From Candidatus Electronema halotolerans (lineage in GTDB: Bacteria > Desulfobacterota > Desulfobulbia > Desulfobulbales > Desulfobulbaceae): DNA of 32,000 bases. Shown here piece by piece: positions 3,143 through 28,018 of this stretch. The stretch lies in the NCBI GenBank assembly GCA_942493095.1, contig OW818675.1, forward strand, positions 1,350,001 through 1,382,000, read 5' to 3'. Positions within the stretch are counted from its first letter, which is position 1. Each line of letters starts with the position of its first letter. The notes beneath the pieces were generated by a model that was not told the DNA's origin, did no database searches, and worked only from the letters and a program-made list of their open reading frames with translations. Position numbers and translations under genes: made by a program.

Positions 3143-6100
3143 TTACCGCTCCCTGCCCTTGCCGCTGTTTCTCCGCCTCGCCTCCGGCCTCTGCATCTGC
3201 AAGGCCAGACACTGCGGCCCGAAAGAGGCTTGCAGCTGCTGGCAGAAGTCCGGGCAGGGCCTGACTTTCAGGTCAGGATGCGGCTCAATGTCAGCCTCGC
3301 CTCTGCCGTCAAAGTGGAGCGTGACCTTGACCGGCACCTTGCCATGAAACTGATAGAGCATATCCTTCAGCTCAGTGAGCTGCTGGCGGCTGGTGCGGGC
3401 TGCTTGAATGGTGATCACCGCTTGCGTGGCGAAGTCCTCCATTGCCTGCGTCAAGGGCATAATATCGTCAGCAATGATGTTTGCCCCGCGCTCGCTGACC
3501 TGCACCGCGCCCTGGACGATCAGCGGCTCCTCGCTGCCAAGCAGGTGGCCGCAGCGGGCAAAGGTCTCCGGGAAGACCACCACCTCAACGCTGGCCGTCA
3601 TGTCCTCGACAGCGGCAAAAGCCATCAGGTCGCCCTTCTTGGATTTATGCTCCTTGTAGCGCTGCATCAGGCCGCCGACCCGCACCACTTGGCCATCGCG
3701 CCAGTTTTCCTGCTGCTCAATGTCCGCGTTGGCAACCATGCGAATGAAGTCAATCACGCCGTCCAGCGGGTGGCCGGTGAGGAAGAAGCCGACCGTCTCC
3801 TTTTCATAAGACAACTTGGTCAGCTGCGGCCATTCCGGGACATCAGGCAGCTTGATCTCCGCCGCCGGATTGCCGCCCTGCTTTGGCCCGGCCAAGGCAA
3901 AAAGATTCATCTGGCCGCTCATCCGGTCGCGCTGCACGCTCTTGGCCTGCTCAATAACCTTGTCCAAGACCTCCATGAGCTGCGCCCGCTTGGCCTTCAG
4001 CGAATCAAAAGCTCCAGCCTTGATTAGGCTCTCCAAGACCTTGCGGTTGACCCGGCTCGAATCAATCCGTCCGCAGAAATCCATCAGTGACTTGTACAGC
4101 CCGCCCTTGCGCCGCTCCTCGATGACTGAATCCAAGGCGGCCCCGCCCACGCCTTTGACCGCAGCCAAGCCAAAACGGATCCGGTCGCGGATGACCGTGA
4201 AGTCGTGGTAGGACTCGTTGATGTCCGGCGGCAGCACCTCAATGTTCATCTGCCTGCATTCGTTGATGTACTTCACCACCTTGTCAGTGTTATCCACGTC
4301 GCAGGAGAGGAGCGCGGCCAAGAACTGGGCAGGATAGTGGGCCTTGAGATAGGCCGTGTGGTAGGCCACCAAGGCGTAGGCGGCGGAATGGGAGTTGTGG
4401 ACAATCAGGCCGTCCGCAACAAAGTTGTGATCCTCCTCCACAGTGAGGTCAAAGGTCGGCTGCTCGCCACGCGCTTCGATGGAAACGACTCTGTCCCAGA
4501 AGATGTCTGAGTCGGCCAGTGCAGCCAGTCGGCTGGAGGCGAAGAACTTTGCCAATTGGGCTAAGGTTGAGCGGCGGAAGCCCAGCTTGACGGCGGAACC
4601 GTTACCCATGAATTCCTTTATGCACAGCCCTGAGCGCGCCTCCAGCTCGCGCCACGTCAAGCCCGCCTGCTGCCGTTCTTCATCCACCCAGTTGCGCACC
4701 TCGGCAGGGATAGTGTCTTCTAAGGGCAGGCCGGGTGGCAAAATGTCAAGCTGTTCAGCCCAGCACGTGCCGTCCGGTGCGGGCAGGTGGCGCGGCGCGG
4801 CTATTCTGTCCCCAGCTTTGAGGTCGCCGAGCAGGGTCCAGCCGTCAAGAGTGCGGAAGGGGTGATTGGCGGTGGCAGTGATCTGATGCCCCTGCGCAGT
4901 CCGCAGCTCAAAGACTGGCTTTTGCCCATTGTCGATGACATCCAGCACCTTGCGCGGACGCAGCTTATAGTCCTCGCCCAGCGCATGAACCATGAAAGCA
5001 CGCGGATTGCTGTGCAGTTCGCCGAGCGTGGTCTGCTCGCCTGTCTCCGCATCAAGTATCCGGGTGGAGCCGACCAAGCACTTATTGAATCCATAAGCCG
5101 CGAACTTAGCCATCAGGTCAAAGACATACGCCGCCTTTTCCTCCGGGATGCCGTTGTTCTTGGCTCCGGCCATGAACTTGCCGCGCTCGGCCTCCATCAC
5201 CTCCGGGATCTTCTTGCCCATCGCCCGGCGGAGGATGTCCGCATCCCCAAGACTGTAGGAAGCAAGGATGTTGGAAATTTTCATCACCTGTTCCTGATAG
5301 ACGATGACCCCGTAGGTCTCCCGCAGCACCTCCTTGATCTGCGGCAGCGGGTATTCGGCAGGGCGACGGCCATGCTTGGTGTCAACAAACTGATCCACCA
5401 TGCCGGAGTCAAGCGGGCCAGGCCGGTACAGGGCGACAAGGGCGACCAAATCCGTGAACTGCTCCGGGGCCATCTTGATCAGCAGCTCGCGCATGCCGTC
5501 GCTTTCGAGCTGGAACACGCCCAAGCTGTTGCCTGCACAGAGCAGATCATACGTCTTGGGATCGTCGGTCGGCAGCTTGTTGAGCTGCACCTCCAGGCCG
5601 ATGTCCTGCTTAATCAGCTTGAGAGCGCGGTCTATCACGGTCAGGGTTTTGAGGCCGAGGAAATCGAACTTGATCAGTCCGGTCATCTCGGTGTACTTCA
5701 TGTCATACTGGGTGATGATCTCCTTTTCCGGGCCAATGCAGACTGGCAGGTACTCCACCATCGGCTTGGGCGAGATCACCACCCCGGCGGCATGGGTTGA
5801 TTTATGCCGGGCCAACCCCTCCAAGGTCTGCGCCACCTTGAGCAGCTTTTCAATCTCTGGCTGCCTCATCTCCTCGCGCAGGCGCGGCTCGTTGGCAATG
5901 GCCTTTTTCAGGGTGATCTTCAGCTCTTCCGGCACCAGCTTGGCAATCCTGTCCACCTGCGGCAGGGGAATCTCCAGCACCCGGCCCACGTCGCGCAAGA
6001 CCGCCCGCGCCTTCATCGAACCATAAGCGACAATTTGGGCCACGTGCTCGTTGCCGCCGTACTTCTGGCGCACGTAGTCTATCACCTCATCCCGCCGGTC

Positions 6101-7330
6101 TTTGCAGAAATCCACGTCAAAATCAGGCATGGAGACCCGCTCGACATTGAGGAAGCGTTCAAAGAGCAGGCCGTAGGGGATAGGGTCGATGTCGGTGATG
6201 GCCATGCAGTAGGCGGCTAGGCTGCCTGCTCCTGAGCCACGGCCTGGTCCTGTAGGGATGCCTTGACTCTTGGCCCAGTTGATGAAGTCGGCCACGATCA
6301 GGAAATAGCCCGCAAAGCCCATCTTCTGGATGACCTTGATCTCCATCTCCAGCCGCTCGCGGTACTCCGCTTCCAGTTCCGGGCCGACCTCCTGCAATTC
6401 GCGCAGCAGGGCCAGCCGCTTTTCAAGGCCGTCGCGGCAGGTGTGCTCAAACAGGCTCTCCAGCGACTCGCCTTTCGGCACCGGGAAGACAGGGAAGTGA
6501 TGTTCGCCAAACTTGAGCTGAAGGTCGCAGCGTTCCGCGACTTCCATCGTGTTGCTCAGGGCTTCCGGGCACCAGCTAAACTGACGGGCCATCACCTCTG
6601 GCGGCTTAAAATACAGCTCGTCAGTGGAGAATTTGAAGCGGCCCGGATCGCTGATCACCCTGCTGGTCTGGATGCAGAGCAGCACCTCGTGGGCGTAGGC
6701 TTCGTCCTGATTGAGGTAGTGGCAGTCATTGGTGGCCACCAGCTTGATGCCGAGGTCGTGGCCCAATTCCTGCAAGCCTGCGTTGACCCTCTTCTGCTCC
6801 GGGATGCCGTTCTCCTGCACCTCGAAATAGAGCCTGTCGCCGAAGAGCTGCTGCAATTCCAGAGCCTTTTGTCGGGCGGCATCCATGCCGCTGTGACTGA
6901 TCAGCCAGGGCACCTCGCCGTGCAGGCAGGCGGAGAGGGCAATCAGTCCTTCATGGTGGCTGGCGAGCAGCTTGCGGCTGATGCGCGGCTTGTAGTAGAA
7001 ACCCTCGGTCTGGGCGACAGAGGCCAGCTTCATCAGGTTGCGATAGCCGTCCTCGTTCATTGCCAGCAGGACGAGGTGGAAGTTGTGGCCCGCGCTCTTG
7101 TCGTGAATAGTATGGTCGGTCTCGGCAATGTACAGCTCGCAGCCGACAATCGGACGCAGGTCGGCCTTCTTGGCCTTGGTGTAGAACTCCAGTGCGCCGT
7201 ACATGGCCCCGTGATCCGTGACCGCAACGGCGTTCATGCCATATTCTTTGGTCTTCTCAATCAGGTCGTTGATGCGGATCGCACCATCGAGCATGGAATA
7301 CTGGGTATGGACGTGCAGGTGGGTGAACAT
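3143..7330 (-). CDS. dnaE: DNA polymerase III alpha subunit, interrupted by a mini-intein
   Basis: ORF 3143..7483. The start was trimmed to ATG 7330, giving the canonical PHP-domain N-terminus MFTHLHVHTQYSMLDGA. Full-length DnaE motifs follow (..GRGSGAGSLAAYCMAITDIDP.., ..FDFLGLKTL.., ..GFNK[intein]SHSAAYALVAYHTAYLKAHYP..). It is 1395 aa including the intein and about 1166 aa without it. Confidence 0.95.
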   Translation of the reverse strand: MFTHLHVHTQYSMLDGAIRINDLIEKTKEYGMNAVAVTDHGAMYGALEFYTKAKKADLRPIVGCELYIAETDHTIHDKSAGHNFHLVLLAMNEDGYRNLMKLASVAQTEGFYYKPRISRKLLASHHEGLIALSACLHGEVPWLISHSGMDAARQKALELQQLFGDRLYFEVQENGIPEQKRVNAGLQELGHDLGIKLVATNDCHYLNQDEAYAHEVLLCIQTSRVISDPGRFKFSTDELYFKPPEVMARQFSWCPEALSNTMEVAERCDLQLKFGEHHFPVFPVPKGESLESLFEHTCRDGLEKRLALLRELQEVGPELEAEYRERLEMEIKVIQKMGFAGYFLIVADFINWAKSQGIPTGPGRGSGAGSLAAYCMAITDIDPIPYGLLFERFLNVERVSMPDFDVDFCKDRRDEVIDYVRQKYGGNEHVAQIVAYGSMKARAVLRDVGRVLEIPLPQVDRIAKLVPEELKITLKKAIANEPRLREEMRQPEIEKLLKVAQTLEGLARHKSTHAAGVVISPKPMVEYLPVCIGPEKEIITQYDMKYTEMTGLIKFDFLGLKTLTVIDRALKLIKQDIGLEVQLNKLPTDDPKTYDLLCAGNSLGVFQLESDGMRELLIKMAPEQFTDLVALVALYRPGPLDSGMVDQFVDTKHGRRPAEYPLPQIKEVLRETYGVIVYQEQVMKISNILASYSLGDADILRRAMGKKIPEVMEAERGKFMAGAKNNGIPEEKAAYVFDLMAKFAAYGFNKCLVGSTRILDAETGEQTTLGELHSNPRAFMVHALGEDYKLRPRKVLDVIDNGQKPVFELRTAQGHQITATANHPFRTLDGWTLLGDLKAGDRIAAPRHLPAPDGTCWAEQLDILPPGLPLEDTIPAEVRNWVDEERQQAGLTWRELEARSGLCIKEFMGNGSAVKLGFRRSTLAQLAKFFASSRLAALADSDIFWDRVVSIEARGEQPTFDLTVEEDHNFVADGLIVHNSHSAAYALVAYHTAYLKAHYPAQFLAALLSCDVDNTDKVVKYINECRQMNIEVLPPDINESYHDFTVIRDRIRFGLAAVKGVGGAALDSVIEERRKGGLYKSLMDFCGRIDSSRVNRKVLESLIKAGAFDSLKAKRAQLMEVLDKVIEQAKSVQRDRMSGQMNLFALAGPKQGGNPAAEIKLPDVPEWPQLTKLSYEKETVGFFLTGHPLDGVIDFIRMVANADIEQQENWRDGQVVRVGGLMQRYKEHKSKKGDLMAFAAVEDMTASVEVVVFPETFARCGHLLGSEEPLIVQGAVQVSERGANIIADDIMPLTQAMEDFATQAVITIQAARTSRQQLTELKDMLYQFHGKVPVKVTLHFDGRGEADIEPHPDLKVRPCPDFCQQLQASFGPQCLALQMQRPEARRRNSGKGRER
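4394..5080 (-). mobile_element. 229-aa mini-intein in DnaE, between GFNK and SHSAAY
   Basis: Starts CLVGSTRILDAETG (block A), contains TATANHPFRT (block B, TxxH) and ends FVADGLIVHN with a +1 Ser. Removal restores the universal DnaE motif YGFNKSHSAAYA. I see no LAGLIDADG or HNH motif in the roughly 100-aa central linker. Confidence 0.85.
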
Positions 7331-7521
7331 GAGGAAAAAGAAGATAGAAAAAACTGGAGAGACAAGCGGCGGTCTCAAGAAAAACTTCTCAGATAGCCGC
7401 AGAGCAATTCCGCACAGACATGAATCTGGCAAAATCCAGCACCTGTCTTGCCACGTCATCCGGCAGGACGGCAACCTTGTCAAGACCCGGATGATTGCAT
7501 TCCGGCTTTTTAAACAAATCA

Positions 7522-7722
7522 GGTAACTACTCAGCCACTAAATAGCGACACATAGAACCGTTTAAACCACAACATATTGTGTTTTTACCTGAAAAACACG
7601 AAGAAATAAGGTGAAAAACAGGACTTCCAAGCTACCAGAAAACAAGCTTATTTTGCATAAAAATACAACATGCAGTGGTTTCAGTCGTAAATAAATCTAC
7701 ATCCGGTGGCTAAGTAGTTACC
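7522..7722. mobile_element. 201-bp MITE-like non-autonomous element nested in the 3' end of the IS481 transposase gene
   Basis: 17-bp terminal inverted repeats GGTAACTACTCAGCCAC (7522-7538) and GTGGCTAAGTAGTTACC (7706-7722), 16 of 17 complementary. Flanked by direct AAATCA at 7516-7521 and 7723-7728. AT-rich interior with no ORF. Confidence 0.7.
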
Positions 7723-8657
7723 AAATCAGGATGTGTTTTTCTCCATTTGTCAAGTGCCTCTGTCGGCGTGACATGACCGAGGTTTCTTTGAGGAATATTG
7801 AGATTATAGATAGCAAGATACTGCATTAAAGTCTCTTCAAGCTGCTGGGCGGAGTCAAAACGGGTCTGCTGAACAACTTCTTGAATCCTGCCGTTGAAGC
7901 GTTCAACCATGCCGTTTGTCTGCGGCTTTTTCGGTTTGATCAAGCGATGCTCAATACCGTGCTCCGCGCATTCCTGATCGAAGATATGGTTTCCAGTCGG
8001 CTTCCGTTCGCCTGTCGGACAGAAACGGTCAGTGAACTCCTTGCCGTTATCAGTGAGAATCTTAGAGATGAGAAAAGGAGCCTTCTTGACGAGATTCTTC
8101 AAAAAGAACGGGCTTCCTCCGCTGTCTTCGAGTCGTGAATTTCCATATAAACCCATCTGGTCGCCCTGTCAACCGCGACGAACAAATATTTCCTGCTTTC
8201 TTCATCCGGCATCTTCGGGAGGTATTTGCATGTCGGCATGAATAAAGCCCGGTTTGTAATCCTTGAATGTTTTCGCAGAGTTTTCCTGTTTGTCCTCCTT
8301 GGAGATCAGGTCTTTCAGGTTTGAAACCCCGTGCCGTCTAAGGCAGCGGTCAAGGGCGGAACGAGACATCTTAGAAAATAAAAATTTCCGCACAACAACA
8401 AGGAGATCGTCTATAGGAAGCAGCAGCGATGTCCGCAATTCAATCACAATCTCCTCTTGGAAGGCTGTGAGGCTCGTGTTCAAATTATGCGGCGTATGCG
8501 AATAATCTTCAACAGTATCGCGATGTTTCCATTTGCGGACTGTATCCCTGCTGATGCCGTATTTAGCGGCGAGCTTCCGTTCAGAGAGTGTTGACTGCTG
8601 AATTTCACGGCGAATTGCAGGGGTTGTCCGTGCTCTTTTATGCAGTGTGATGTTCAT
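7710..8657 (-). pseudogene. IS481-family DDE transposase, disrupted by two 1-nt frameshifts and C-terminally truncated by the MITE insertion
   Basis: ORF 8202..8657 carries the HTH N-terminus, ending ..KPGFIHADMQ. ORF 7710..8156 carries ..LTDNGKEF..PQTNGMVERFNG... These two ORFs share one frame. The segment between them (about 8105-8228) reads KYLPKMPDEESRKYLFVAVDRATRWVYMEIHDSKTAEEARSF only in another frame, and it holds the first catalytic Asp. Confidence 0.8.
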
Positions 8658-20655: not shown

Positions 20656-21033
20656 ATGAAATGTTCAGAGCTTGCCCAAGAAGCTATTGACAAGGTGCGG
20701 CAGCAGCGGACAGCAGGCCGTCGGCAAAAAACAGCTCGCGTCGTCAAGAAAGGCTGCAGCTCTGTCGGAAAAACAGCAAGTTTTACCAAAGCAGTTCTGG
20801 CCGCAGCAGGAATATTCTTTCTCTCATCTTTTGTCTTTGTGTCATGCGCAACATTTCTTGCCTCATTTGAAAAACAGAGACAAGCAGTCCACAGCACGGC
20901 AAGAACACCGGCTGTCCGGACAAATACAAGCAATTCAGCACCTGTCAAGAAACGCTATGGGCAAGAAATATACAAATGGGTTGATGCAAATGGTGTTGTC
21001 CATTTGAGCAACACGAAAGATGAAGAATACTAA
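20656..21033 (+). CDS. Small membrane protein with a DUF4124-like C-terminus
   Basis: TM AVLAAAGIFFLSSFVFVSCATFL, then C-terminal IYKWVDANGVVHLSNTKDEE. Confidence 0.45.
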   Translation: MKCSELAQEAIDKVRQQRTAGRRQKTARVVKKGCSSVGKTASFTKAVLAAAGIFFLSSFVFVSCATFLASFEKQRQAVHSTARTPAVRTNTSNSAPVKKRYGQEIYKWVDANGVVHLSNTKDEEY

Positions 21034-22972
21034 CAAGTCAAACAACAGCAAATTCAATTTTATGCAATTAGACAATATCCTCTGGCTGCCGGACGAAACC
21101 CAGGCTGTCCTCTTTGACATGGATGGGGTGCTCTTGGACAGCCTTGGTCTGGACTTCACTCTCTGCAATGAGCTGCTCCGCAAGAATCTTGGCCGAGAGG
21201 CGCAGCTCTCCAAAGACTTCATCCGCTCCATCTTTGCCTATCATCCGCCGGAATTCTGGCGGAGAATCTTTGCCTTGATCGAAGAACAGGACGGCATTGC
21301 CGCTGCGGATGCGGTGCGGCAGACTGTTCTTGATGAATACAATGCGGCCCGCAAGGAGGCTGTCTTTCCGGTCAATCCCGGCATCGTTGCTCTTCTTGCC
21401 GCCTGCAAGGAACAGCGGCTCAAGACAGCCGTGGTCTCCAACAATCCAACTGAGGATGTCTGCAATATCCTCAGCCAATCCGGCATTGCCGAATACTTTG
21501 ACTTGATTGTCGGCAATGATCTGCACAAGCTCCAGCCAAAGCCCGCGCCTGACACCTACATCTATGCCGCCAACATGCTGGAAATGCTGCCCGGTAATTG
21601 CGCAGTGATTGAGGATTCGCTGCTCGGTGCGGAAGCAGGCGGCAAGGCAGGCTGCTTTGTGGTTGGAGTGGCCACCGGCGGCACGAGTTTTGCCGACTTG
21701 GAGGCCTCAGAACAGACCCGGCGGGTTTATGCCTCATTTCATCCCAATCAGCTTGTCCTCCAATTCGGCGATGTGACCCAAAAGCGCCTGCATACGCCGA
21801 ACGACTTTGTCAGTCATGCGATTGAGCACATTGCTTGGCGGATGGGCTGCGGCATTGAGCTGTTCTGGAACAGCAATGACTGGCCGCAGCTTGGTCTTGC
21901 CCTAGGCCGTTGCATTGCCAATCTGCCGCAGCAGGCTGCCATGGCTGCGGCCTTGGGCATGATTGATGACGGCAGCGCGGAAGTGACCATCACGTTGGCA
22001 GATGAGCCGGACTTCCTGATTGAGACGGTGGAGCAGCTTGATCCGGCCTGGTTCTTCAGCCTGCGCTGCGAGCAGGTTGAATCGAGCGCGCCGCTGCTGG
22101 AGCTGCTGCGCGGCCTGACGCAAGGGCTGCAAGCACGGCTGCATGTCCTTGTCTGCGGGGTGGAAGACCCGCATCATGCCTGGGAGGGCGTGTTCCGGGC
22201 CATCGGCATTGCCTTGGGTAAAATCTTCGCGCCAAAGGCAATGCCTCCAGCAGCGGCGACGCAGCCGAATAAGGCTCCGGCGCATGGCATCATGGTTGAG
22301 GAATTGACCGACCAGACGGCGGCGGTTGTCCGCAGCACCGCAGAGAGCCGGGTCCGGGTGGCAGTGAACTGCGCCGGGCACTGGCCGGGCTGCTGCAGCT
22401 TCAAGGTTGGCCCGTCCATTCAGGTCTCTGCATTCGGCGGCCTGCTGGAGGCAATGGCCAAGGAGGCCGGTTTCACGCTGTCGGTTGATTTCACGGCGGA
22501 ACAGCTCAGTTCCAGCCATGTGGTGATGGAAGATACCGGCTTGGTCTTGGGCCGTGCCCTCAAGGAGCTACTGATCCGGCGCATGAACGGCGCAGGCGTG
22601 AACGGCGCAGGCAGCAGCATTCAGAGCGAGACCGACATGGCCAGCCAGCCGCTCAGGGTCGGGGTGAGCGTGGAGGGCCGCAAGTTTGTCAAGTTCGTGC
22701 CCTTTGCTGAAGATTGGACCGCGTTCCGCAAACATTTCCTGCTTGGCCAGGATGTCTATGGCGGCCTGTTCTCAGAGGACTTGGATGACTTTCTCGACGG
22801 CTTGGCAGGCGGGCTGCATTGCAGCATTGTGGTGCATGTCCGGGAGCGCGTTGCCCCGGCAGAAGGCTGGCTCCTGCTCTTCCAGCAGCTCGGCAAAGCC
22901 TTGCACGAGGTCTTTGCGGAGAATCCGGCCCGGAAAGGCGTGCCGCCCGGTGTGAAGGCGACGCTGGCCTAA
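21020..22972 (+). CDS. HAD-superfamily phosphatase fused to two tandem degenerate imidazoleglycerol-phosphate dehydratase-like domains
   Basis: 650 aa. HAD motifs are VLFDMDGVLLDS, AVVSNN and VIEDSLLGAEAGGKAG. Unit 1 (about aa 255-405): FVSHAIEHIAWRMGCGIELF..GVEDPHHAWEGVFRAIGIALG. Unit 2 (about aa 433-650): AAVVRSTAESRVRVAVN..SSSHVVMEDTGLVLGRAL..GVPPGVKATLA. An alternative start is ATG 21062. Confidence 0.65.
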   Translation: MKNTNKSNNSKFNFMQLDNILWLPDETQAVLFDMDGVLLDSLGLDFTLCNELLRKNLGREAQLSKDFIRSIFAYHPPEFWRRIFALIEEQDGIAAADAVRQTVLDEYNAARKEAVFPVNPGIVALLAACKEQRLKTAVVSNNPTEDVCNILSQSGIAEYFDLIVGNDLHKLQPKPAPDTYIYAANMLEMLPGNCAVIEDSLLGAEAGGKAGCFVVGVATGGTSFADLEASEQTRRVYASFHPNQLVLQFGDVTQKRLHTPNDFVSHAIEHIAWRMGCGIELFWNSNDWPQLGLALGRCIANLPQQAAMAAALGMIDDGSAEVTITLADEPDFLIETVEQLDPAWFFSLRCEQVESSAPLLELLRGLTQGLQARLHVLVCGVEDPHHAWEGVFRAIGIALGKIFAPKAMPPAAATQPNKAPAHGIMVEELTDQTAAVVRSTAESRVRVAVNCAGHWPGCCSFKVGPSIQVSAFGGLLEAMAKEAGFTLSVDFTAEQLSSSHVVMEDTGLVLGRALKELLIRRMNGAGVNGAGSSIQSETDMASQPLRVGVSVEGRKFVKFVPFAEDWTAFRKHFLLGQDVYGGLFSEDLDDFLDGLAGGLHCSIVVHVRERVAPAEGWLLLFQQLGKALHEVFAENPARKGVPPGVKATLA

Positions 22973-23086: not shown

Positions 23087-23434
23087 TCAGAAAGTAATAA
23101 CTGAATATCCTTGGGTAATATAGTCAGCCATTGCAGGGTGGCCGGACATTGTGCCGATGAGCTGGATATCTTCCGCCTCAATTTCCTCGGCAACGCCCAG
23201 CTTGGCAGAGCAGGCTCGGCAGGCACCAAGGATCAGCCCCTTTCCCTTGGCCTCGGTGTAAAGCTGATGCAGAAAATGCTCAGGTTTGGCCATTTCCGGC
23301 ACCAGCTTGACCGCCTCGCCCTCCAAGACAATTTTCCCGCCCAAGCCCTGCGCAGCCATGTTCAGGCTGTTGAGCAGGACATGGATAAAGCACATCGGTT
23401 CGCCCTTGAAGGCGAACAGCACTGTTTCACTCAT
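23087..23434 (-). CDS. DsrE/DsrF-like family small protein
   Basis: 115 aa. MSETVLFAFKGEPMCFIHVLLNSLNMAAQG..LILGACRACSAKLGV.. The assignment is from fold-typical motifs only. Confidence 0.45.
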   Translation of the reverse strand: MSETVLFAFKGEPMCFIHVLLNSLNMAAQGLGGKIVLEGEAVKLVPEMAKPEHFLHQLYTEAKGKGLILGACRACSAKLGVAEEIEAEDIQLIGTMSGHPAMADYITQGYSVITF

Positions 23435-23463
23435 TGCAGTTTCCTCTTGCAGAGATGGAAATG

Positions 23464-23497
23464 AAAACCCCGGCCTCCTCTGCCAAGGAGACCGGGG
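23464..23497 (-). terminator. Rho-independent terminator after the cytochrome-trHb gene
   Basis: Minus strand: CCCCGGTCTCC-loop-GGAGGCCGGGG (one mismatch), followed by TTTT. Confidence 0.6.
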
Positions 23498-23528
23498 CTT
23501 CTGCTTTCAGGCAGGAGAGGCTTGCCTC

Positions 23529-25583
23529 TTACCTTCTGCCAAGCACATCCTCGCGGACGCTGTTAGCCACTTTGACCGCAATGTTGACAATCTCCGGCTT
23601 CACGCCCAGCTCTTCCAGAGCCTCGCGGAAGTGTTGGAGGATGATGTCAAAGTGCGTGTCATTGAGACCTTTCTCTTCGACCAAGCGGGCATGAACTGCT
23701 TTCAGAGCCCGGCCTGTGTAAGACTGGCCGCTGCCCAAGGCGAAGTTCATGAAACCCTTCTGCATCCGCCGCTGGGTGGCCATGTCAACGCCTTCAAAGA
23801 AGTAATTGACACGCGGATCAGCCATTACTTTGTCATAAAAAAGATCAACGGCCTTGCTGACCGCCACCTCGCCGCCAATTGTTTCATAGAAGGCAGCGGC
23901 GGCAGGTCCCTGCGGCAGGATGTCAGCTCGTTCCTGCACCGGTGCTACTGAAGGCTTGCCCTTGGTCTTGAAGGTCACGGTCTTGTCGATCATGTCAACC
24001 ACAGGCAGCGGATTCGGCACCTCTTTCAGCCCGTAAATCTCCTCCAGATCAAAGCCTTTGGGCATGTTGGCAAAGATTTTCTCAGCCAGCTTCTGGCCTG
24101 CGACCCGGAAACGGAGTTTGGCATGGAGGGTGAGGGTATGCTCATGCGGGTCATTATGCAGCTTGGTCAGAGAGGAGTAGTACACATCCTTGTAGCCCTT
24201 GGGCGGGATGATGTCATGCCGGGTGAAGGAAACCAGCTTCCACGGATCAGCCGTGAACTTCATGTTGATATCCGCGCCCTCGGAGTTGAACATATAGGTG
24301 TTGCCGTCCAGCTCGCCGTCTGGCTTGATAAAGCCGCTTTTCAGCACTTCCCTGCCGTCCTCATCCGTAGCTGTCACTTCCAGCCACATCTCCCGGACAT
24401 TGGTCAGCGAGGTGGGCAGGGCATGACCGCAGCGCTTGTTCCAAATCCGCACTTTAATCTTGCCCAACAAGCCGGTCTCATCGTAGATCGGCTCGATCTC
24501 CATCTCTGCGGCAGCTTGGAGCCGGGCCACAGCCATATCATACTTTAGCTGGGCATTGGCGGCCAGCTTGGCATCGCCCATTTTCTCAGCCCGCAGCTTG
24601 TCCAGCAGATACATGGTGAAGTTGGCACCGTTGAAGAAGTGGCGGTACTCGCTCCGCTTGGGCTTCTGGAAGGTGTCAGCAGAACGGATGAAGGTTGGAA
24701 TATCGACCATGTGGCAGTCCTGACACTGAATGCCCTTGATCGAATAGATGCCCTTCTTCCATTCGTTGTAGGTGTGCTCAATCGGGAAATGCTCTTCGTA
24801 ATGGAAGACCTGATGGCAGCCGCCGCACAGCTCGCCGCGCAGATGCAATGGCGACTCAATGCACTCATGGAAGCCGCCGCCGCAGCCGTCATAATTCGGG
24901 AAGGGGCCGTACTTGGTGCGGACATTGTTGCCGTTCTTGTCCTTGTAGCCAGGCGACAGGACATACGAACCATTCTCCGGCTCATGCGACGGAGTATCCC
25001 AGTGGGTGTGCGTTCTGATGGAATGGCAGACATCGCAGGACACGCCAGCCTTGGCCAGGTCGGTGAGCTTGGACATGTCCAGCTCCTCGCCCCGTTTCGG
25101 CCCCAGCCCGGAAACCGTGGCAGCGGCAGTGTGGCAGCCCTCGCACTGGTTGCGGATGCCTTCGCCCACATCCTTGATGCCCAAGATCAGCTCGCCGAGA
25201 TAGATGGGATCCCGGAACGCCTGCTCGTGCATGGAACCCTTCCAGTCTTCAAACTGCTGCGGATGGCAGCCGCCGCAGGTCATGACCGAAGGCACCTCAA
25301 AGGGCACGCCCTTGTCCTCAAAGGCGATGTTGGATGGGTAAAACTGATACTTCTGCTTGAGATAAGCGTGGTTGTACCGGGCGTAGGGAACATTCCAGAT
25401 ATTGGCTAACTGCTTGTCCACCTCGTAGGGATTAGGCGGCGCGTTCATTGTCGCCTGCGAAGGACTGTAGTTGGGCTGGGTTGCGCTGACTTGGCCCTGC
25501 TTCTGGGCAAAGACCGCAGCCGCATTCAAGGCCAGCCCTGCCGCTGTCAGACAGAGTACCAGCCCCATCCGCTTCTTTTTCAT
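23529..25583 (-). CDS. Periplasmic pentahaem c-type cytochrome fused to a C-terminal group-I-like truncated haemoglobin domain
   Basis: ATG 25583 has GGAGGAG 8 nt upstream. Signal peptide MKKKRMGLVLCLTAAGLALNAAAVFAQ. Five CxxCH motifs (CGGCH, CEGCH, CDVCH, CGGCH, CQDCH). The last 120 aa or so read FYETIGGEVAVSKAVDLFYDKVMADPRVNYFFEGVDMATQRRMQKGFMNFALGSGQSYTGRALKAVHARL..THFDIILQHFREALEELGV, which is trHb-like. Confidence 0.85.
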   Translation of the reverse strand: MKKKRMGLVLCLTAAGLALNAAAVFAQKQGQVSATQPNYSPSQATMNAPPNPYEVDKQLANIWNVPYARYNHAYLKQKYQFYPSNIAFEDKGVPFEVPSVMTCGGCHPQQFEDWKGSMHEQAFRDPIYLGELILGIKDVGEGIRNQCEGCHTAAATVSGLGPKRGEELDMSKLTDLAKAGVSCDVCHSIRTHTHWDTPSHEPENGSYVLSPGYKDKNGNNVRTKYGPFPNYDGCGGGFHECIESPLHLRGELCGGCHQVFHYEEHFPIEHTYNEWKKGIYSIKGIQCQDCHMVDIPTFIRSADTFQKPKRSEYRHFFNGANFTMYLLDKLRAEKMGDAKLAANAQLKYDMAVARLQAAAEMEIEPIYDETGLLGKIKVRIWNKRCGHALPTSLTNVREMWLEVTATDEDGREVLKSGFIKPDGELDGNTYMFNSEGADINMKFTADPWKLVSFTRHDIIPPKGYKDVYYSSLTKLHNDPHEHTLTLHAKLRFRVAGQKLAEKIFANMPKGFDLEEIYGLKEVPNPLPVVDMIDKTVTFKTKGKPSVAPVQERADILPQGPAAAAFYETIGGEVAVSKAVDLFYDKVMADPRVNYFFEGVDMATQRRMQKGFMNFALGSGQSYTGRALKAVHARLVEEKGLNDTHFDIILQHFREALEELGVKPEIVNIAVKVANSVREDVLGRR

Positions 25584-25784
25584 AATCAAAAGCTCCTCCT
25601 TTCCTCTGTTGGTTGGTAAAAAAAATGAAACGCCACGAGTCATACATGAGGCTATTATAGTGGAACAGACGGCAAAATCAAAGATGTGGGACAATTTTTT
25701 TTGCCTTTGCAGGCATCCGCAGGGAAGTTGGGCTGTATCTTCTTAGTTCTTCGTAACAATGCCCGATGCAGCCTTCGGAATCAT

Positions 25785-27306: not shown

Positions 27307-27406
27307 CAAAGGACTTGTCAGTCAGTGTTAAATACAGAGAGGAGGAGTGAACCATGCCGACCATTGCGATACGTCGCACCGAATCAAGTCAAGGAGAGAT
27401 GATCAG

Positions 27407-28018
27407 ATGCTGAAGGTCAAATATTTATTTTCTGCTGCAGCAGTGCTGCTGGGCCTCCGCCCTGCGGCAGCCGCAATCAAGTCCTGCGCAGAGCTGCAAG
27501 CGGAGATTGAAGCCAAGCTGGCCGCCAAAAAGGTCAAGGCGTACTGCCTGACTATTGTGGAAAAAGAAGAGGAGGCGCAGGGGAAAACCGTTGGCTCCTG
27601 TGAAAACAGCTCCAAGAAAATTATGTACATCAGGCAGGGGAATGCTCCGGCTGAACCGTCCGGGCAGTCCCAGTCGGCCAAGAACGATTCAGCCGGGGAT
27701 GCTGACTGGCCAGTCATGCAGGTTTGCAGTGACCAGCTGATTGCAACAGCGGGTGGGCAAGAGAAAGTCGTTTTCTCCTGTGGAGACGGCTCCAGGCCCG
27801 TTGACCAAGACAGCGCAGTCGAGGAAGCCTTGGCTAAGGTGACAGCGCAGAGCATCAAGCCATGCCCGGAGCTGAAGGCGGAGATTGAGGCCAAGCTCAA
27901 AGCGCACAAGGTTAAAGCATACACGCTGAACATTGTCAGCAAGAATGCCGATGCGCCGGGCAAGGTGGTGGGCACCTGCGAGAACAGCTCCAAAAAAATC
28001 ATGTACATCAGAAAGTAG
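27407..28018 (+). CDS. Secreted protein with two DUF1161-like modules
   Basis: ATG 27407 has AAGGAGAG upstream. Signal MLKVKYLFSAAAVLLGLRPAAA. Module 1: CAELQAEIEAKLAAKKVKAYCLTIV..GKTVGSCENSSKKIMYIRQ. Module 2: CPELKAEIEAKLKAHKVKAYTLNIV..GKVVGTCENSSKKIMYIRK. Confidence 0.7.
   Translation: MLKVKYLFSAAAVLLGLRPAAAAIKSCAELQAEIEAKLAAKKVKAYCLTIVEKEEEAQGKTVGSCENSSKKIMYIRQGNAPAEPSGQSQSAKNDSAGDADWPVMQVCSDQLIATAGGQEKVVFSCGDGSRPVDQDSAVEEALAKVTAQSIKPCPELKAEIEAKLKAHKVKAYTLNIVSKNADAPGKVVGTCENSSKKIMYIRK

Follow-up and report, generated by a model that had tools for sequence, protein, structure and literature searches.

A pentahaem cytochrome c fused to a group I truncated haemoglobin in Candidatus Electronema halotolerans, a candidate for periplasmic oxygen reduction in cable bacteria

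A single open reading frame in a 32,000-nucleotide stretch of the Candidatus Electronema halotolerans genome (the window) appears to encode an export signal, a multihaem cytochrome c and a truncated haemoglobin (trHb) in one polypeptide. This raises two questions: whether the three parts really belong to one protein, and what a globin attached to a chain of haems would do outside the cytoplasm. The first-pass annotation of this DNA had read all three parts in one open reading frame, and we found each of them in a continuous frame. The gene and its expression signals are as follows.

23529-25583, minus strand: fusion gene, an open reading frame of 684 aa for a predicted Sec-exported pentahaem cytochrome c with a truncated haemoglobin
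25595-25600, minus strand: putative ribosome-binding site AGGAGG, 11 nt 5' of the ATG at 25583, read from the sequence
25654-25681, minus strand: promoter-like TTGATT-16-TATAAT, about 70 nt 5' of the start codon, matching the consensus at 10 of 12 positions in a consensus scan, a pattern match alone of which the scanned region would hold about one by chance

The longest version of this frame in the ORF list (23529-25694, minus strand) opens at a far-upstream TTG. Translation probably begins at the ATG at 25583, since AGGAGG stands 11 nt before it and the homologues open with the same MKKKR.

Could the fusion be an assembly or annotation artefact joining two separate genes? Some cable bacteria do encode the trHb and the pentahaem cytochrome in separate genes, and this was the only support that we found for an artefact, a case that the first-pass annotation had itself named as one that would undo its reading. 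However, the reading frame is unbroken through the linker between cytochrome and globin, NCBI has a Candidatus Electronema halotolerans protein of identical sequence (100%), and an independent Logan assembly contains it as well. Moreover, orthologous fusions occur in at least nine GTDB species genomes, two of them complete chromosomes (OW818652.1 and CP178758.1). The artefact is effectively refuted, and we give it practically no probability.

The compartment of the protein follows from its N-terminus, where the first-pass annotation had proposed a cleavable Sec signal peptide.

25506-25583, minus strand: putative signal peptide of the Sec/SPase I type, aa 1-26 (MKKKRMGLVLCLTAAGLALNAAAVFA, followed by QK), from hydropathy and the -3/-1 rule

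This segment has a basic n-region, a hydrophobic core with a Kyte-Doolittle value of about 2 over residues 5 to 12, and V-F-A at positions -3 to -1, placing the probable cleavage between VFA and Q; the feature is kept in the homologues of the fusion protein (alignment of 19). An RR pair and a lipobox are both absent, by which Tat export and a lipoprotein were ruled out, and the protein has no other hydrophobic or transmembrane segment. Orthologues of the fusion were scored SP(Sec/SPI) by SignalP (PMC11976967, Dataset EV1). These features support a protein that is exported by Sec and resides in the periplasm.

Behind the signal peptide lies the cytochrome, which comprises more than haem-binding sequence.

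24510-25376, minus strand: pentahaem c-type helical cap, aa ~70-358, from five CxxCH motifs, Pfam PF13435, hhalign to MccSep and Foldseek to 5ZE8
25263-25277, 25131-25145, 25023-25037, 24813-24827 and 24711-24725, minus strand: codons of the five CxxCH motifs, from a motif scan
23949-24509, minus strand: Ig-like beta-sandwich, the 'stem' of the PHC fold, aa 359-545, from the AF2 model and structural and profile alignments
23898-23948, minus strand: flexible linker, aa 546-562, with pLDDT below 50 at residues 548-558

The motif scan placed the five CxxCH motifs at C103, C147, C183, C253 and C287, whereas about 0.01 would be expected by chance in 684 aa, as estimated from the protein's own content of Cys and His. 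All five are invariant across 19 fusion homologues, and neither CxxCK nor any longer variant of the haem motif occurs in the 684 aa. The Pfam family Cytochrome_C554 (PF13435) matches at aa 102-188. The five haem-c sites of the first-pass annotation are thus real, but its haem domain of about 540 aa divides into a haem-binding helical cap (about 290 aa) and an Ig-like beta-sandwich (about 185 aa). The latter region is all-beta in the AF2 model (strands at aa 359-540, pLDDT mostly 85-95) and aligns with the Ig-like domains of Thermochromatium tepidum c552 and MccSep; an invariant loop, G386-H387-x-x-P-T-S-L393-T, sits in this stem. Outside the motifs, eight His residues are invariant in the 19 fusion proteins (119, 194, 239, 247, 261, 265, 315 and 387). 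The linker that follows differs in length and sequence between the same homologues, and with its pLDDT below 50 the AF2 model leaves the position of the globin relative to the haem chain unset.

The C-terminal part was analysed by profile, sequence and structure comparison.

23532-23897, minus strand: group I truncated haemoglobin, aa 563-684, from Pfam PF01152, PDB phmmer and Foldseek
Within it, minus strand: key residues from alignment, Tyr583 (B10), Phe596 (CD1), Gln604 (E7), Met607 (E10; codon 23763-23765), Gln608 (E11) and His631 (F8; codon 23691-23693)

Pfam Bac_globin (PF01152) matches at aa 565-679 with an E value of 7e-14, in agreement with the globin of about 120 aa first read at 23532-23891, coordinates that correspond to aa 565-684. 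With this match and the one to Cytochrome_C554, the HMM searches that had been suggested for multihaem cytochromes and globins both returned the expected family. The trHb hallmarks noted at first pass are all present, FYETIGGE at residue 565, LFYDKV with Tyr583 (B10) and AVHARL with His631, at the position of the F8 His in THB1 and GlbN; a globin-like tail matching no trHb model or lacking the proximal His, the other outcome that would have spoken against that reading, is not what we found.

NCBI and JGI name this protein YjbI, after a group II trHb. The B. subtilis YjbI is of the same superfamily (Pfam Bac_globin), but its structure 1UX8 gave a weak match (E 4e-4), compared with 1.9e-28 for the closest PDB sequence, Chlamydomonas reinhardtii THB1, at 44% identity. 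More generally, group I proteins were matched by phmmer at E values from 1e-28 to 1e-12 and group II proteins at 1e-4 or weaker. The globin domain contains no Trp, so the Trp G8 of group II is missing, and CD1 is Phe where group II usually has Tyr; on these grounds we rejected a group II identity. Judged by its sequence, the globin is a group I trHb of the THB1/GlbN type and the YjbI label an over-annotation. The structural match to THB1 (6CII) has an rmsd of 0.9 A and a TM score of 0.92 (Foldseek), and together with the sequence identity and the conserved pocket residues this makes the domain look functional.

With the group I proteins THB1 (4XDI/6CII), cyanobacterial GlbN and Mycobacterium tuberculosis HbN the window globin has in common the 2-on-2 fold and the residues His F8, Tyr B10, Phe CD1, Gln E7 and Gln E11. 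It differs from them in being periplasmic and fused to a multihaem cytochrome. The His117 that links the haem covalently in GlbN is missing, and the second Gly-Gly motif of the group is Gly-Ser in the window copy. A further difference is at E10, where the window globin has Met in place of the iron-ligating Lys53 of THB1 or His46 of GlbN. Among the cable-bacterial trHb domains examined, none departs from F8 His, B10 Tyr or E7 Gln, E11 is Gln in all except two, which have Met, and E10 is Met in 29 of 29. This conservation of the pocket supports the predicted binding of a b-haem and of diatomic ligands. In the relatives of the cable-bacterial globin, Lys or His at E10 serves as distal iron ligand, and such ligands give six-coordinate states that aid electron transfer. 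The K(E10)M variant of THB1 shows Met ligation in the ferrous state, whereas a TrHbN-2 protein with a natural Met at E10 is five-coordinate.

The next question is whether the protein belongs to a known family. Fusions of this kind in cable bacteria have been named lPHCtX (PMC11976967), and we are almost certain that the window gene is the Ca. E. halotolerans copy of cable-bacterial lPHCtC (large pentahaem cytochrome, C-terminal truncated haemoglobin). The window protein has the Sec signal, the large PHC cap with five CxxCH motifs, the Ig-like domain and the terminal trHb of the family, and its host is a cable bacterium, as the taxonomy confirmed. It is 55-85% identical to the Electrothrix and Electronema orthologues, with no essential difference from them, and represents the type with a C-terminal globin only ('tC'). 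The same three-module architecture was found in 19 aligned homologues. Freshwater Electronema, unlike E. halotolerans, have mostly lPHCtX with N- and C-terminal or only N-terminal globins, and an unfused lPHC in tandem, immediately 5' of the fusion gene. Across GTDB and among 1.84 billion cluster representatives, our two surveys detected cytochrome-globin fusions in no lineage other than that of the cable bacteria. Unfused paralogues of lPHC occur widely in Desulfobulbales, Desulfuromonadales and Nitrospirota. According to papers citing it, Kjeldsen 2019 first described the family and found it in a proteome. The fusions have been proposed as an alternative periplasmic terminal oxidase or O2 reductase (PMC11976967). 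The tentative statement in the first-pass annotation that cytochrome-trHb fusions had been discussed for cable bacteria as candidate O2 reductases agrees with this literature; both the fusion and the hypothesis were already published.

The surroundings of the gene were inspected for hints to its function.

23458-23501, minus strand: putative intrinsic terminator, a 17-bp hairpin with a U-run, from RNA folding and a terminator scan
23087-23434, minus strand: DsrE-like cytoplasmic protein of 115 aa with a CxxC motif (GACRACS), Pfam DsrE, E 5.5e-7

Orthologues of the DsrE-like gene (66-71% identity) lie directly 3' of the fusion gene in four Electrothrix genomes, making five genomes with this arrangement, typical of Electrothrix, when E. 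halotolerans is included. It is not general, as no DsrE-like gene stands at that position in Electronema sp. KV or in freshwater Electronema. NCBIfam and PDB searches with the DsrE-like protein returned no match. Because of the strong terminator between the two genes and the missing synteny in the closest relative, we take an operon of the two as no more than a weak lead. The hairpin, at about 23464-23501, has a computed free energy of -33.5 kcal/mol (z = -5.48; none of 200 shuffles was equally good) and is followed by a U-run, and a terminator had already been placed here, at 23464-23497, by the first-pass annotation. A functional link between the DsrE-like gene and the fusion gene is uncertain. 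The other flanking genes (TrmFO, a HAD-IGPD fusion, DUF1161 and NERD) gave no functional hint.

The cytochrome domain has a characterised homologue in MccSep/ExtKL (GSU2937-2936), the pentahaem selenoprotein polysulfide reductase of Geobacter sulfurreducens (bioRxiv 10.1101/2025.11.18.688581), to which it aligned in hhalign with a probability of 97.4% and an E value of 1.4e-11. The five CxxCH motifs, the helical cap, the Ig-like stem and the G-H-x-x-P loop all align, although the MccSep cap is about 100 aa smaller. His 74, 180, 271 and 319 of MccSep correspond to His 119, 194, 315 and 387 of the window protein, which are probable distal His ligands. The two catalytic positions are another matter. 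Cys239, the haem-2 ligand of MccSep, falls on Ile268/Glu269, of which Glu269 is invariant in the 19 fusion proteins, and no Cys occurs in the window protein between haem motifs 4 and 5; the catalytic Sec325 of the D-G-U-P loop falls on the invariant Leu393 of P-T-S-L-T. Homology to ExtKL, a host that oxidises sulfide and the adjacent DsrE-like gene had led us to consider a role as polysulfide reductase or sulfide oxidase of the MccSep type, and it was rejected since both catalytic residues, the haem-ligating Cys and the Sec/Cys, are missing. The NCBIfam ExtKL model NF040886 scored 24.2 bits (cut-off 250). Cys385 in 'RCGHALPTS' was also rejected as an equivalent of the Sec, as it aligns to Ala317 of MccSep and most of the family, the Electrothrix proteins and the unfused lPHCs among them, have Ala there.

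The best structural match of the cytochrome and Ig-like part is the low-potential pentahaem c552 of Thermochromatium tepidum (5ZE8; Foldseek E 2e-11, TM 0.69 on the target; phmmer E 1e-5, 18% identity), which retains a Cys where the window protein has Glu269 and has no globin. A pentahaem nitrite reductase of the NrfA type was rejected, with no CxxCK in the protein, a score of 12.8 bits against 595 for NF008339, and E values above 0.06 for the NrfA structures in the PDB.

These comparisons bear on whether the pentahaem domain is itself the catalyst. In that case haem 2, which in MccSep has a His/Cys active site but here is without the Cys ligand and maybe five-coordinate, would act on O2, on H2O2 or on an oxyanion of nitrogen or sulfur as a reductase, and the globin would capture, buffer or deliver O2 or scavenge reactive by-products. 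Its homology to an enzyme with all five haems aligned and the replacement of the haem-2 Cys beside an invariant Glu269 are consistent with this, and lPHC is among the cytochromes with at least one five-coordinate c-haem in structural models and has been classed as possibly catalytic (PMC11976967). The domain also functions without a globin, because unfused lPHC paralogues are widespread, including those next to the fusion gene in freshwater Electronema. However, the eight invariant non-motif His would suffice for five bis-His haems, Leu393 has taken the place of the Sec/Cys nucleophile, the gene context suggests no substrate, and the AF2 model carries no haems, so that haem coordination is not read from it. 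We regard a catalytic pentahaem domain as quite improbable. The lack of both the Cys and the Sec makes a relay role of this domain plausible.

We propose, with a confidence close to even, that the most likely function of the fusion protein is that of a soluble periplasmic electron sink reducing O2 with no energy conserved. From the parts present, Sec would export the precursor in unfolded form, cleavage would follow after Ala26, five c-haems would be attached to the helical cap by the Ccm system, and the globin would fold in the periplasm around a non-covalent b-haem on His631. Electrons may then enter the c-haem chain from the periplasmic pool (small cytochromes or conductive fibres), probably through haem 1, which is exposed and for which the same has been proposed in MccSep, and pass to the flexibly tethered globin, where the TyrB10/GlnE7/GlnE11 network would hold O2 for its reduction. 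In the gas-free ferrous state Met607 (E10) may serve as an iron ligand, and electrons would then pass more easily to the b-haem. Of this picture, the analysis shows the architecture, the residues, the homologies and the restriction to one lineage; the direction in which electrons flow, the substrate, the product and the ligation by Met are inferred.

Physiology is consistent with such a sink. Most cable bacteria are without canonical terminal oxidases, and in native filaments the electrocatalytic reduction of O2 responds to pH much as it does with immobilised B. subtilis trHb; the electrocatalytic O2 reduction by that trHb, YjbI, has been cited in support of the oxidase hypothesis. Against a firm genetic assignment, species that also carry a cytochrome c oxidase show the same activity, and CydA homologues and other periplasmic cytochromes remain candidates for it. 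The chemistry also argues against an O2 reductase. A globin with a single b-haem has no second metal or cofactor for the four-electron cleavage of the O-O bond. Globins usually autoxidise slowly to superoxide or peroxide, and the TyrB10/Gln network normally stabilises bound O2 and does not activate it. For group I trHbs the best-characterised activity is NO dioxygenation, not O2 reduction.

This last point leads to an unlikely alternative, a periplasmic NO dioxygenase or NO detoxifier in which the oxy-ferrous trHb would turn NO to nitrate and the pentahaem domain would re-reduce the ferric haem. The logic is that of Hmp, in which a globin covalently fused to its own reductase cycles catalytically with O2 and NO. 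Hmp is a functional analogy only, being cytoplasmic with a 3-on-3 globin and an FAD/NAD(P)H reductase that is not homologous to the window cytochrome domain, whereas the window protein is periplasmic and 2-on-2 with a c-haem chain in the place of the flavin. A globin with a dedicated reductase is nevertheless the architecture that such chemistry needs, and TyrB10, GlnE7 and GlnE11 are those of its closest solved relatives THB1, GlbN and HbN, characterised mainly as NO dioxygenases or protectants against RNS. THB1 has been linked to nitrogen metabolism. NO could arise in the periplasm of cable bacteria, which have Nap and a periplasmic octahaem nitrite reductase, and its removal would shield the haem and Ni machinery of the periplasm while nitrate or nitrite is being reduced. 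On the other hand, no nitrogen-oxide genes adjoin the fusion gene in any locus examined, and a periplasmic trHb encoded by all cable bacteria, often as two or three copies or domains, together with the missing oxidases, agrees better with a core role in respiration. Of NO dioxygenation and O2 reduction, the one activity does not rule out the other.

The invariant Met E10 could also be taken to mean that the globin is not catalytic at all. It would then be a sensor of O2, NO or sulfide, an O2 buffer, or a sixth redox centre (b-type, His/Met) extending the chain in the manner of cytochrome b562. The ferrous THB1 K(E10)M precedent and the flexible tether are compatible with this, and periplasmic His/Met b-haem proteins exist, as in the E. 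coli cytochrome. However, the protein has neither an output or signalling domain nor a membrane anchor, the complete distal set of Tyr B10, Gln E7 and Gln E11 would be needless in a pure electron carrier, and the natural Met-E10 TrHbN-2 is five-coordinate. A non-catalytic globin therefore seems highly improbable.

Returning to O2 reduction, a more far-reaching form of it, which we consider rather improbable, would make the cable-bacterial periplasmic trHbs a functional subclass. Met E10 would give a redox-switched His/Met ferrous haem b, with six-coordination raising its potential and speeding electron entry from the c-haems until O2 displaces the Met, and the MccSep-derived domain with Glu269 and Leu393 would add rapid multi-electron delivery or a second open haem, allowing copper-free four-electron reduction of O2. 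If true, terminal oxidases would gain a new type of chemistry.

No prokaryote is known to pass electrons to O2 at higher biomass-specific rates than cable bacteria do, and the lPHCtX fusion is the leading published candidate for this reduction. To that picture the present analysis adds the group I assignment of the globin, its invariant Met E10, the homology to MccSep with both catalytic residues lost, and a DsrE-like neighbour kept in part of the lineage. A haem-only, copper-free periplasmic O2 reductase, if that is what these proteins are, would be an oxidase of a new kind, and useful as a bioelectrocatalyst.

The fusion gene occupies a single long open reading frame on the minus strand (23529..25694 in the six-frame listing), and the ATG at 25583 is likely the start codon, because AGGAGG lies 11 nt upstream of it and homologues start at the same MKKKR. 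Pattern matching only places a promoter-like TTGATT-16-TATAAT about 70 nt upstream of the start. The 684-aa product contains exactly five CxxCH motifs (Cys103, 147, 183, 253 and 287), with an estimated chance expectation of about 0.01 for a protein of this Cys and His composition, and neither CxxCK nor extended haem-motif variants occur in it. At the N-terminus a basic n-region leads into a hydrophobic core and then V-F-A followed by Q, and the protein has no twin arginine, lipobox or later hydrophobic segment; these features predict a soluble Sec/SPase I substrate, and such export fits the c-haems since attachment of c-type haem requires it. Pfam assigns aa 102-188 to Cytochrome_C554 and aa 565-679 to Bac_globin (E 7e-14), and the gene ends in a strong terminator hairpin 3' of its stop codon (-33.5 kcal/mol, z = -5.5). 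The first-pass annotation had described the signal peptide, the five haem-c sites, the C-terminal globin and the terminator, and all of its elements were found where it had placed them.

The AlphaFold2 model of the protein (pLDDT 74, pTM 0.68) is divided into four regions:

aa ~70-358: helical cap, less confident near haem motifs 4 and 5
aa 359-540: all-beta domain, high confidence
aa 548-558: disordered linker
aa 560-681: helical globin, confident

The lower confidence near motifs 4 and 5 is expected because the model carries no haems. Foldseek matched the cytochrome part to 5ZE8, the pentahaem c552 of T. tepidum (E 2e-11, TM 0.69), and the globin to C. reinhardtii THB1 6CII (rmsd 0.9 A, TM 0.92, 44% identity). 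An alignment of 19 fusion proteins revealed three architectures, with globins at the C-terminus only, at both ends or at the N-terminus only, the first being that of the window gene and Electrothrix. The five CxxCH are invariant across all 19 proteins, as are eight more histidines (119, 194, 239, 247, 261, 265, 315 and 387).

An assembly error joining separate genes, against which the first-pass annotation had cautioned, is excluded by a deposited protein of 100% identity ('Truncated hemoglobin YjbI [Candidatus Electronema halotolerans]') and by orthologous fusions in other genomes. The fusion is real but already known. A taxonomy check placed the organism among the cable bacteria, in the family Desulfobulbaceae, and its closed genome has been published (PMC10030654). 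Fusions of a cytochrome to a truncated haemoglobin (trHb) are cited repeatedly as unique to cable bacteria, and Kjeldsen et al. (2019), as cited in later papers, proposed a periplasmic, non-energy-conserving O2 reductase, in agreement with the first-pass annotation, which had named such fusions as candidate oxygen reductases and whose interpretation is supported. The large pentahaem cytochromes (lPHC) and their trHb fusions (lPHCtX) were named as a family in PMC11976967, where trHb domains are N-terminal, C-terminal or both, lPHC is likened structurally to T. tepidum c552, Gsu2801 and ExtKL, and lPHCtX was detected in a proteome, with SignalP predictions of Sec/SPI. Native cable-bacterial filaments reduce O2 electrocatalytically and efficiently according to a 2026 preprint, whose candidates are trHb, small cytochromes and a CydA homologue, with Cox or CydABX in some species.

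A PDB sequence search with the globin returned THB1, cyanobacterial GlbN, trHbs of Chlamydomonas, Paramecium and Tetrahymena, and M. tuberculosis HbN, all of group I and with E values from 1e-28 to 1e-12; judged by sequence the domain is a group I trHb. By comparison, the group II YjbI of B. subtilis reached only E 4e-4, and the globin domain has no Trp anywhere, and therefore no Trp G8; the deposited YjbI name was thus rejected as an over-annotation. The pocket is formed by Tyr583 (B10), Phe596 (CD1), Gln604 (E7), Gln608 (E11) and His631 (F8), the last being the proximal His on which, together with a trHb match, the first-pass reading had depended. The best supported reading is that the protein is a soluble periplasmic electron sink, in which the c-haem chain would take electrons from a periplasmic pool or the conductive fibres and then reduce the tethered b-haem of the globin, where O2 would be held by the Tyr/Gln network and reduced. 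The architecture, the residues, the homologies and the restriction to one lineage are observed, while the direction of electron flow, the substrate and the product are inferred. An Hmp-like NO dioxygenase would suit the architecture equally well, and no activity of group I trHbs is better documented than NO dioxygenation. A role purely in sensing or relay is less likely, given that the protein has no output domain and keeps a full ligand-stabilising pocket.

For the electron-sink reading, the distal residue E10 deserves attention. This position provides an iron ligand in THB1 (Lys53) and GlbN (His46), whereas in the fusion globin it is occupied by Met607. Met was found at E10 in 29/29 globin domains from cable bacteria or Desulfobulbaceae MAGs among GTDB species genomes, in fused as well as stand-alone signal-peptide globins of the cable-bacterial lineage; the 69 other domains, all drawn from the 80 GTDB loci closest to the query, carry Lys (46), His (14), Met (8) or Arg (1). 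Ligation by E10 gives six-coordinate states that facilitate electron transfer (PMC11904497). We infer that Met607 might ligate the iron, and keep this tentative because THB1 K(E10)M shows Met coordination in the ferrous, not the ferric, state, whereas TrHbN-2 with a natural Met E10 is five-coordinate (PMC11904497).

The cytochrome domain was compared with MccSep (ExtKL of G. sulfurreducens), a pentahaem selenoprotein polysulfide reductase in which haem 2 is His/Cys239-ligated, Sec325 reaches in from an Ig-like domain and electrons are proposed to enter at haem 1 (bioRxiv 10.1101/2025.11.18.688581). The MccSep sequence, taken from Extended Data Fig. 1 of that preprint, matched the lPHC profile with 97.4% probability (E 1.4e-11), and all five haem motifs aligned. 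However, Cys239 corresponds to Ile268/Glu269 in the fusion, the equivalent Cys of T. tepidum c552 to Glu269 (invariant in the 19 fusion proteins), and Sec325 to Leu393 of an invariant P-T-S-L-T. The domain belongs to the MccSep superfamily, but with both catalytic residues replaced and an NCBIfam ExtKL score of 24 bits against a cut-off of 250 it is not an MccSep-type sulfur enzyme. The loss of the haem-2 Cys ligand leaves catalysis by the cytochrome domain itself as a possibility. Histidines 119, 194, 315 and 387 are common to MccSep and the fusion and are probably the distal ligands of haems 1, 3, 4 and 5; haem 2 may have no sixth ligand in lPHC, according to the models in PMC11976967.

Cys385 (codon 24429-24431) directly precedes the invariant Gly-His387 common to MccSep and T. 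tepidum c552. Suspicious in this position, it was considered as the Sec325 counterpart and rejected, since it aligns to MccSep Ala317 and is Ala in Electrothrix and in the alignment consensus including unfused lPHCs. It is kept in most Electronema fusion proteins, and is thus a thiol specific to one clade and close to a probable haem ligand.

The survey of the fusion suggested by the first-pass annotation limited it, among the matches listed, to cable-bacterial and Desulfobulbaceae genomes. When 5.8 billion clusters were searched, all source-named matches with both Pfam domains were Electronema or Electrothrix, bar one labelled Desulfobulbus sp. TB, a name absent from NCBI taxonomy; lPHCs that lack a globin, with 52-64% identity across the cytochrome domain, are widespread in taxa including Desulfobulbales, Desulfuromonadales and Nitrospirota. 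Of the 150 best-matching representatives from 1.84 billion clusters (50% identity), only P0018, of a cable-bacterial cluster, combines both features, and P0157 is a fragment that runs from the last portion of the cytochrome part through the globin. The GTDB scan found globin and CxxCH in one protein in at least 9 genomes, only cable-bacterial or Desulfobulbaceae, and stand-alone signal-peptide trHbs (160-200 aa) in the cable-bacterial lineage.

In freshwater Electronema (loci L001, L002, L003 and L030; ~290-1700) an unfused lPHC paralogue, 60-64% identical to the window's cytochrome domain, lies directly upstream of a double-globin fusion gene, which points to a tandem duplication that either preceded or followed the capture of the globin. 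Elsewhere, group I trHbs are repeated in tandem within single polypeptides (loci L034, L056, L060, L066, L071, L074 and L079; representatives P0151, P0160, P0162 and P0185), with 2-3 domains each in MAGs of Chromatiaceae and other Gammaproteobacteria and as many as 12 in one 1882-aa protein. An alphaproteobacterial MAG (L041 3463-6568) has a trHb embedded in a 1010-aa protein that we would guess from its N-terminal residues alone to be CheA-like, and in Zetaproteobacteria (L033, L057, L058, L063 and L078) the gene for a soluble trHb precedes one for another trHb, whose hydrophobic N-terminal stretch is possibly a membrane anchor.

The genes flanking the fusion gene (TrmFO, a DUF1161 protein, a HAD-IGPD fusion and a NERD protein) are not related to respiration. 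Features of the surrounding DNA are:

23087-23434, minus strand: DsrE-like 115-aa protein with CxxC motif 'GACRACS', directly downstream of the fusion gene
21020-22972, plus strand: HAD-IGPD fusion of 650 aa, with an N-terminal HAD phosphatase (aa 28-217)
27347-28018, plus strand: protein with two DUF1161 repeats and an N-terminal hydrophobic stretch (possible signal peptide), adjoining TrmFO
3143-7483, minus strand: DnaE, the alpha subunit of DNA polymerase III (1446 aa), with an intein inserted
7710-8657, minus strand: IS3-type transposase pieces in two adjacent ORFs (rve_3 integrase core and HTH_28)

The DsrE-like protein lacks a signal peptide, and neither NCBIfam nor the PDB gave a match to it. 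Its orthologues (66-71% identity) are directly downstream of the fusion gene in four Electrothrix genomes (L019 4619-4966; L022 4558-4902; L026 531-875; L081 7082-7429), but the gene is missing at that position in freshwater Electronema and in Electronema sp. KV; the latter is the closest relative and instead shares the TrmFO/DUF1161 synteny on the upstream side. A functional association is only a weak lead because the strong terminator separates both genes. The HAD-IGPD protein has weak, split imidazoleglycerol-phosphate-dehydratase-like segments (aa ~432-642) and about 200 residues without assignment in between; a standard bifunctional HisB was rejected, all NCBIfam equivalog scores being far below cut-offs. 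The DnaE intein (Pfam Intein_splicing, aa 813-1030, E 3e-20) lies between the finger and HhH domains, and the IS3-type pair probably represents an insertion sequence that has been frameshifted or has decayed.

With the exact protein deposited and its family named and discussed, what we add is offered as hypotheses: the group I assignment, the invariant Met E10, the partly conserved DsrE synteny, and the homology to MccSep with loss of its two catalytic residues. Although the gene does not newly expose the biological question behind the fusion, that question is an important one.
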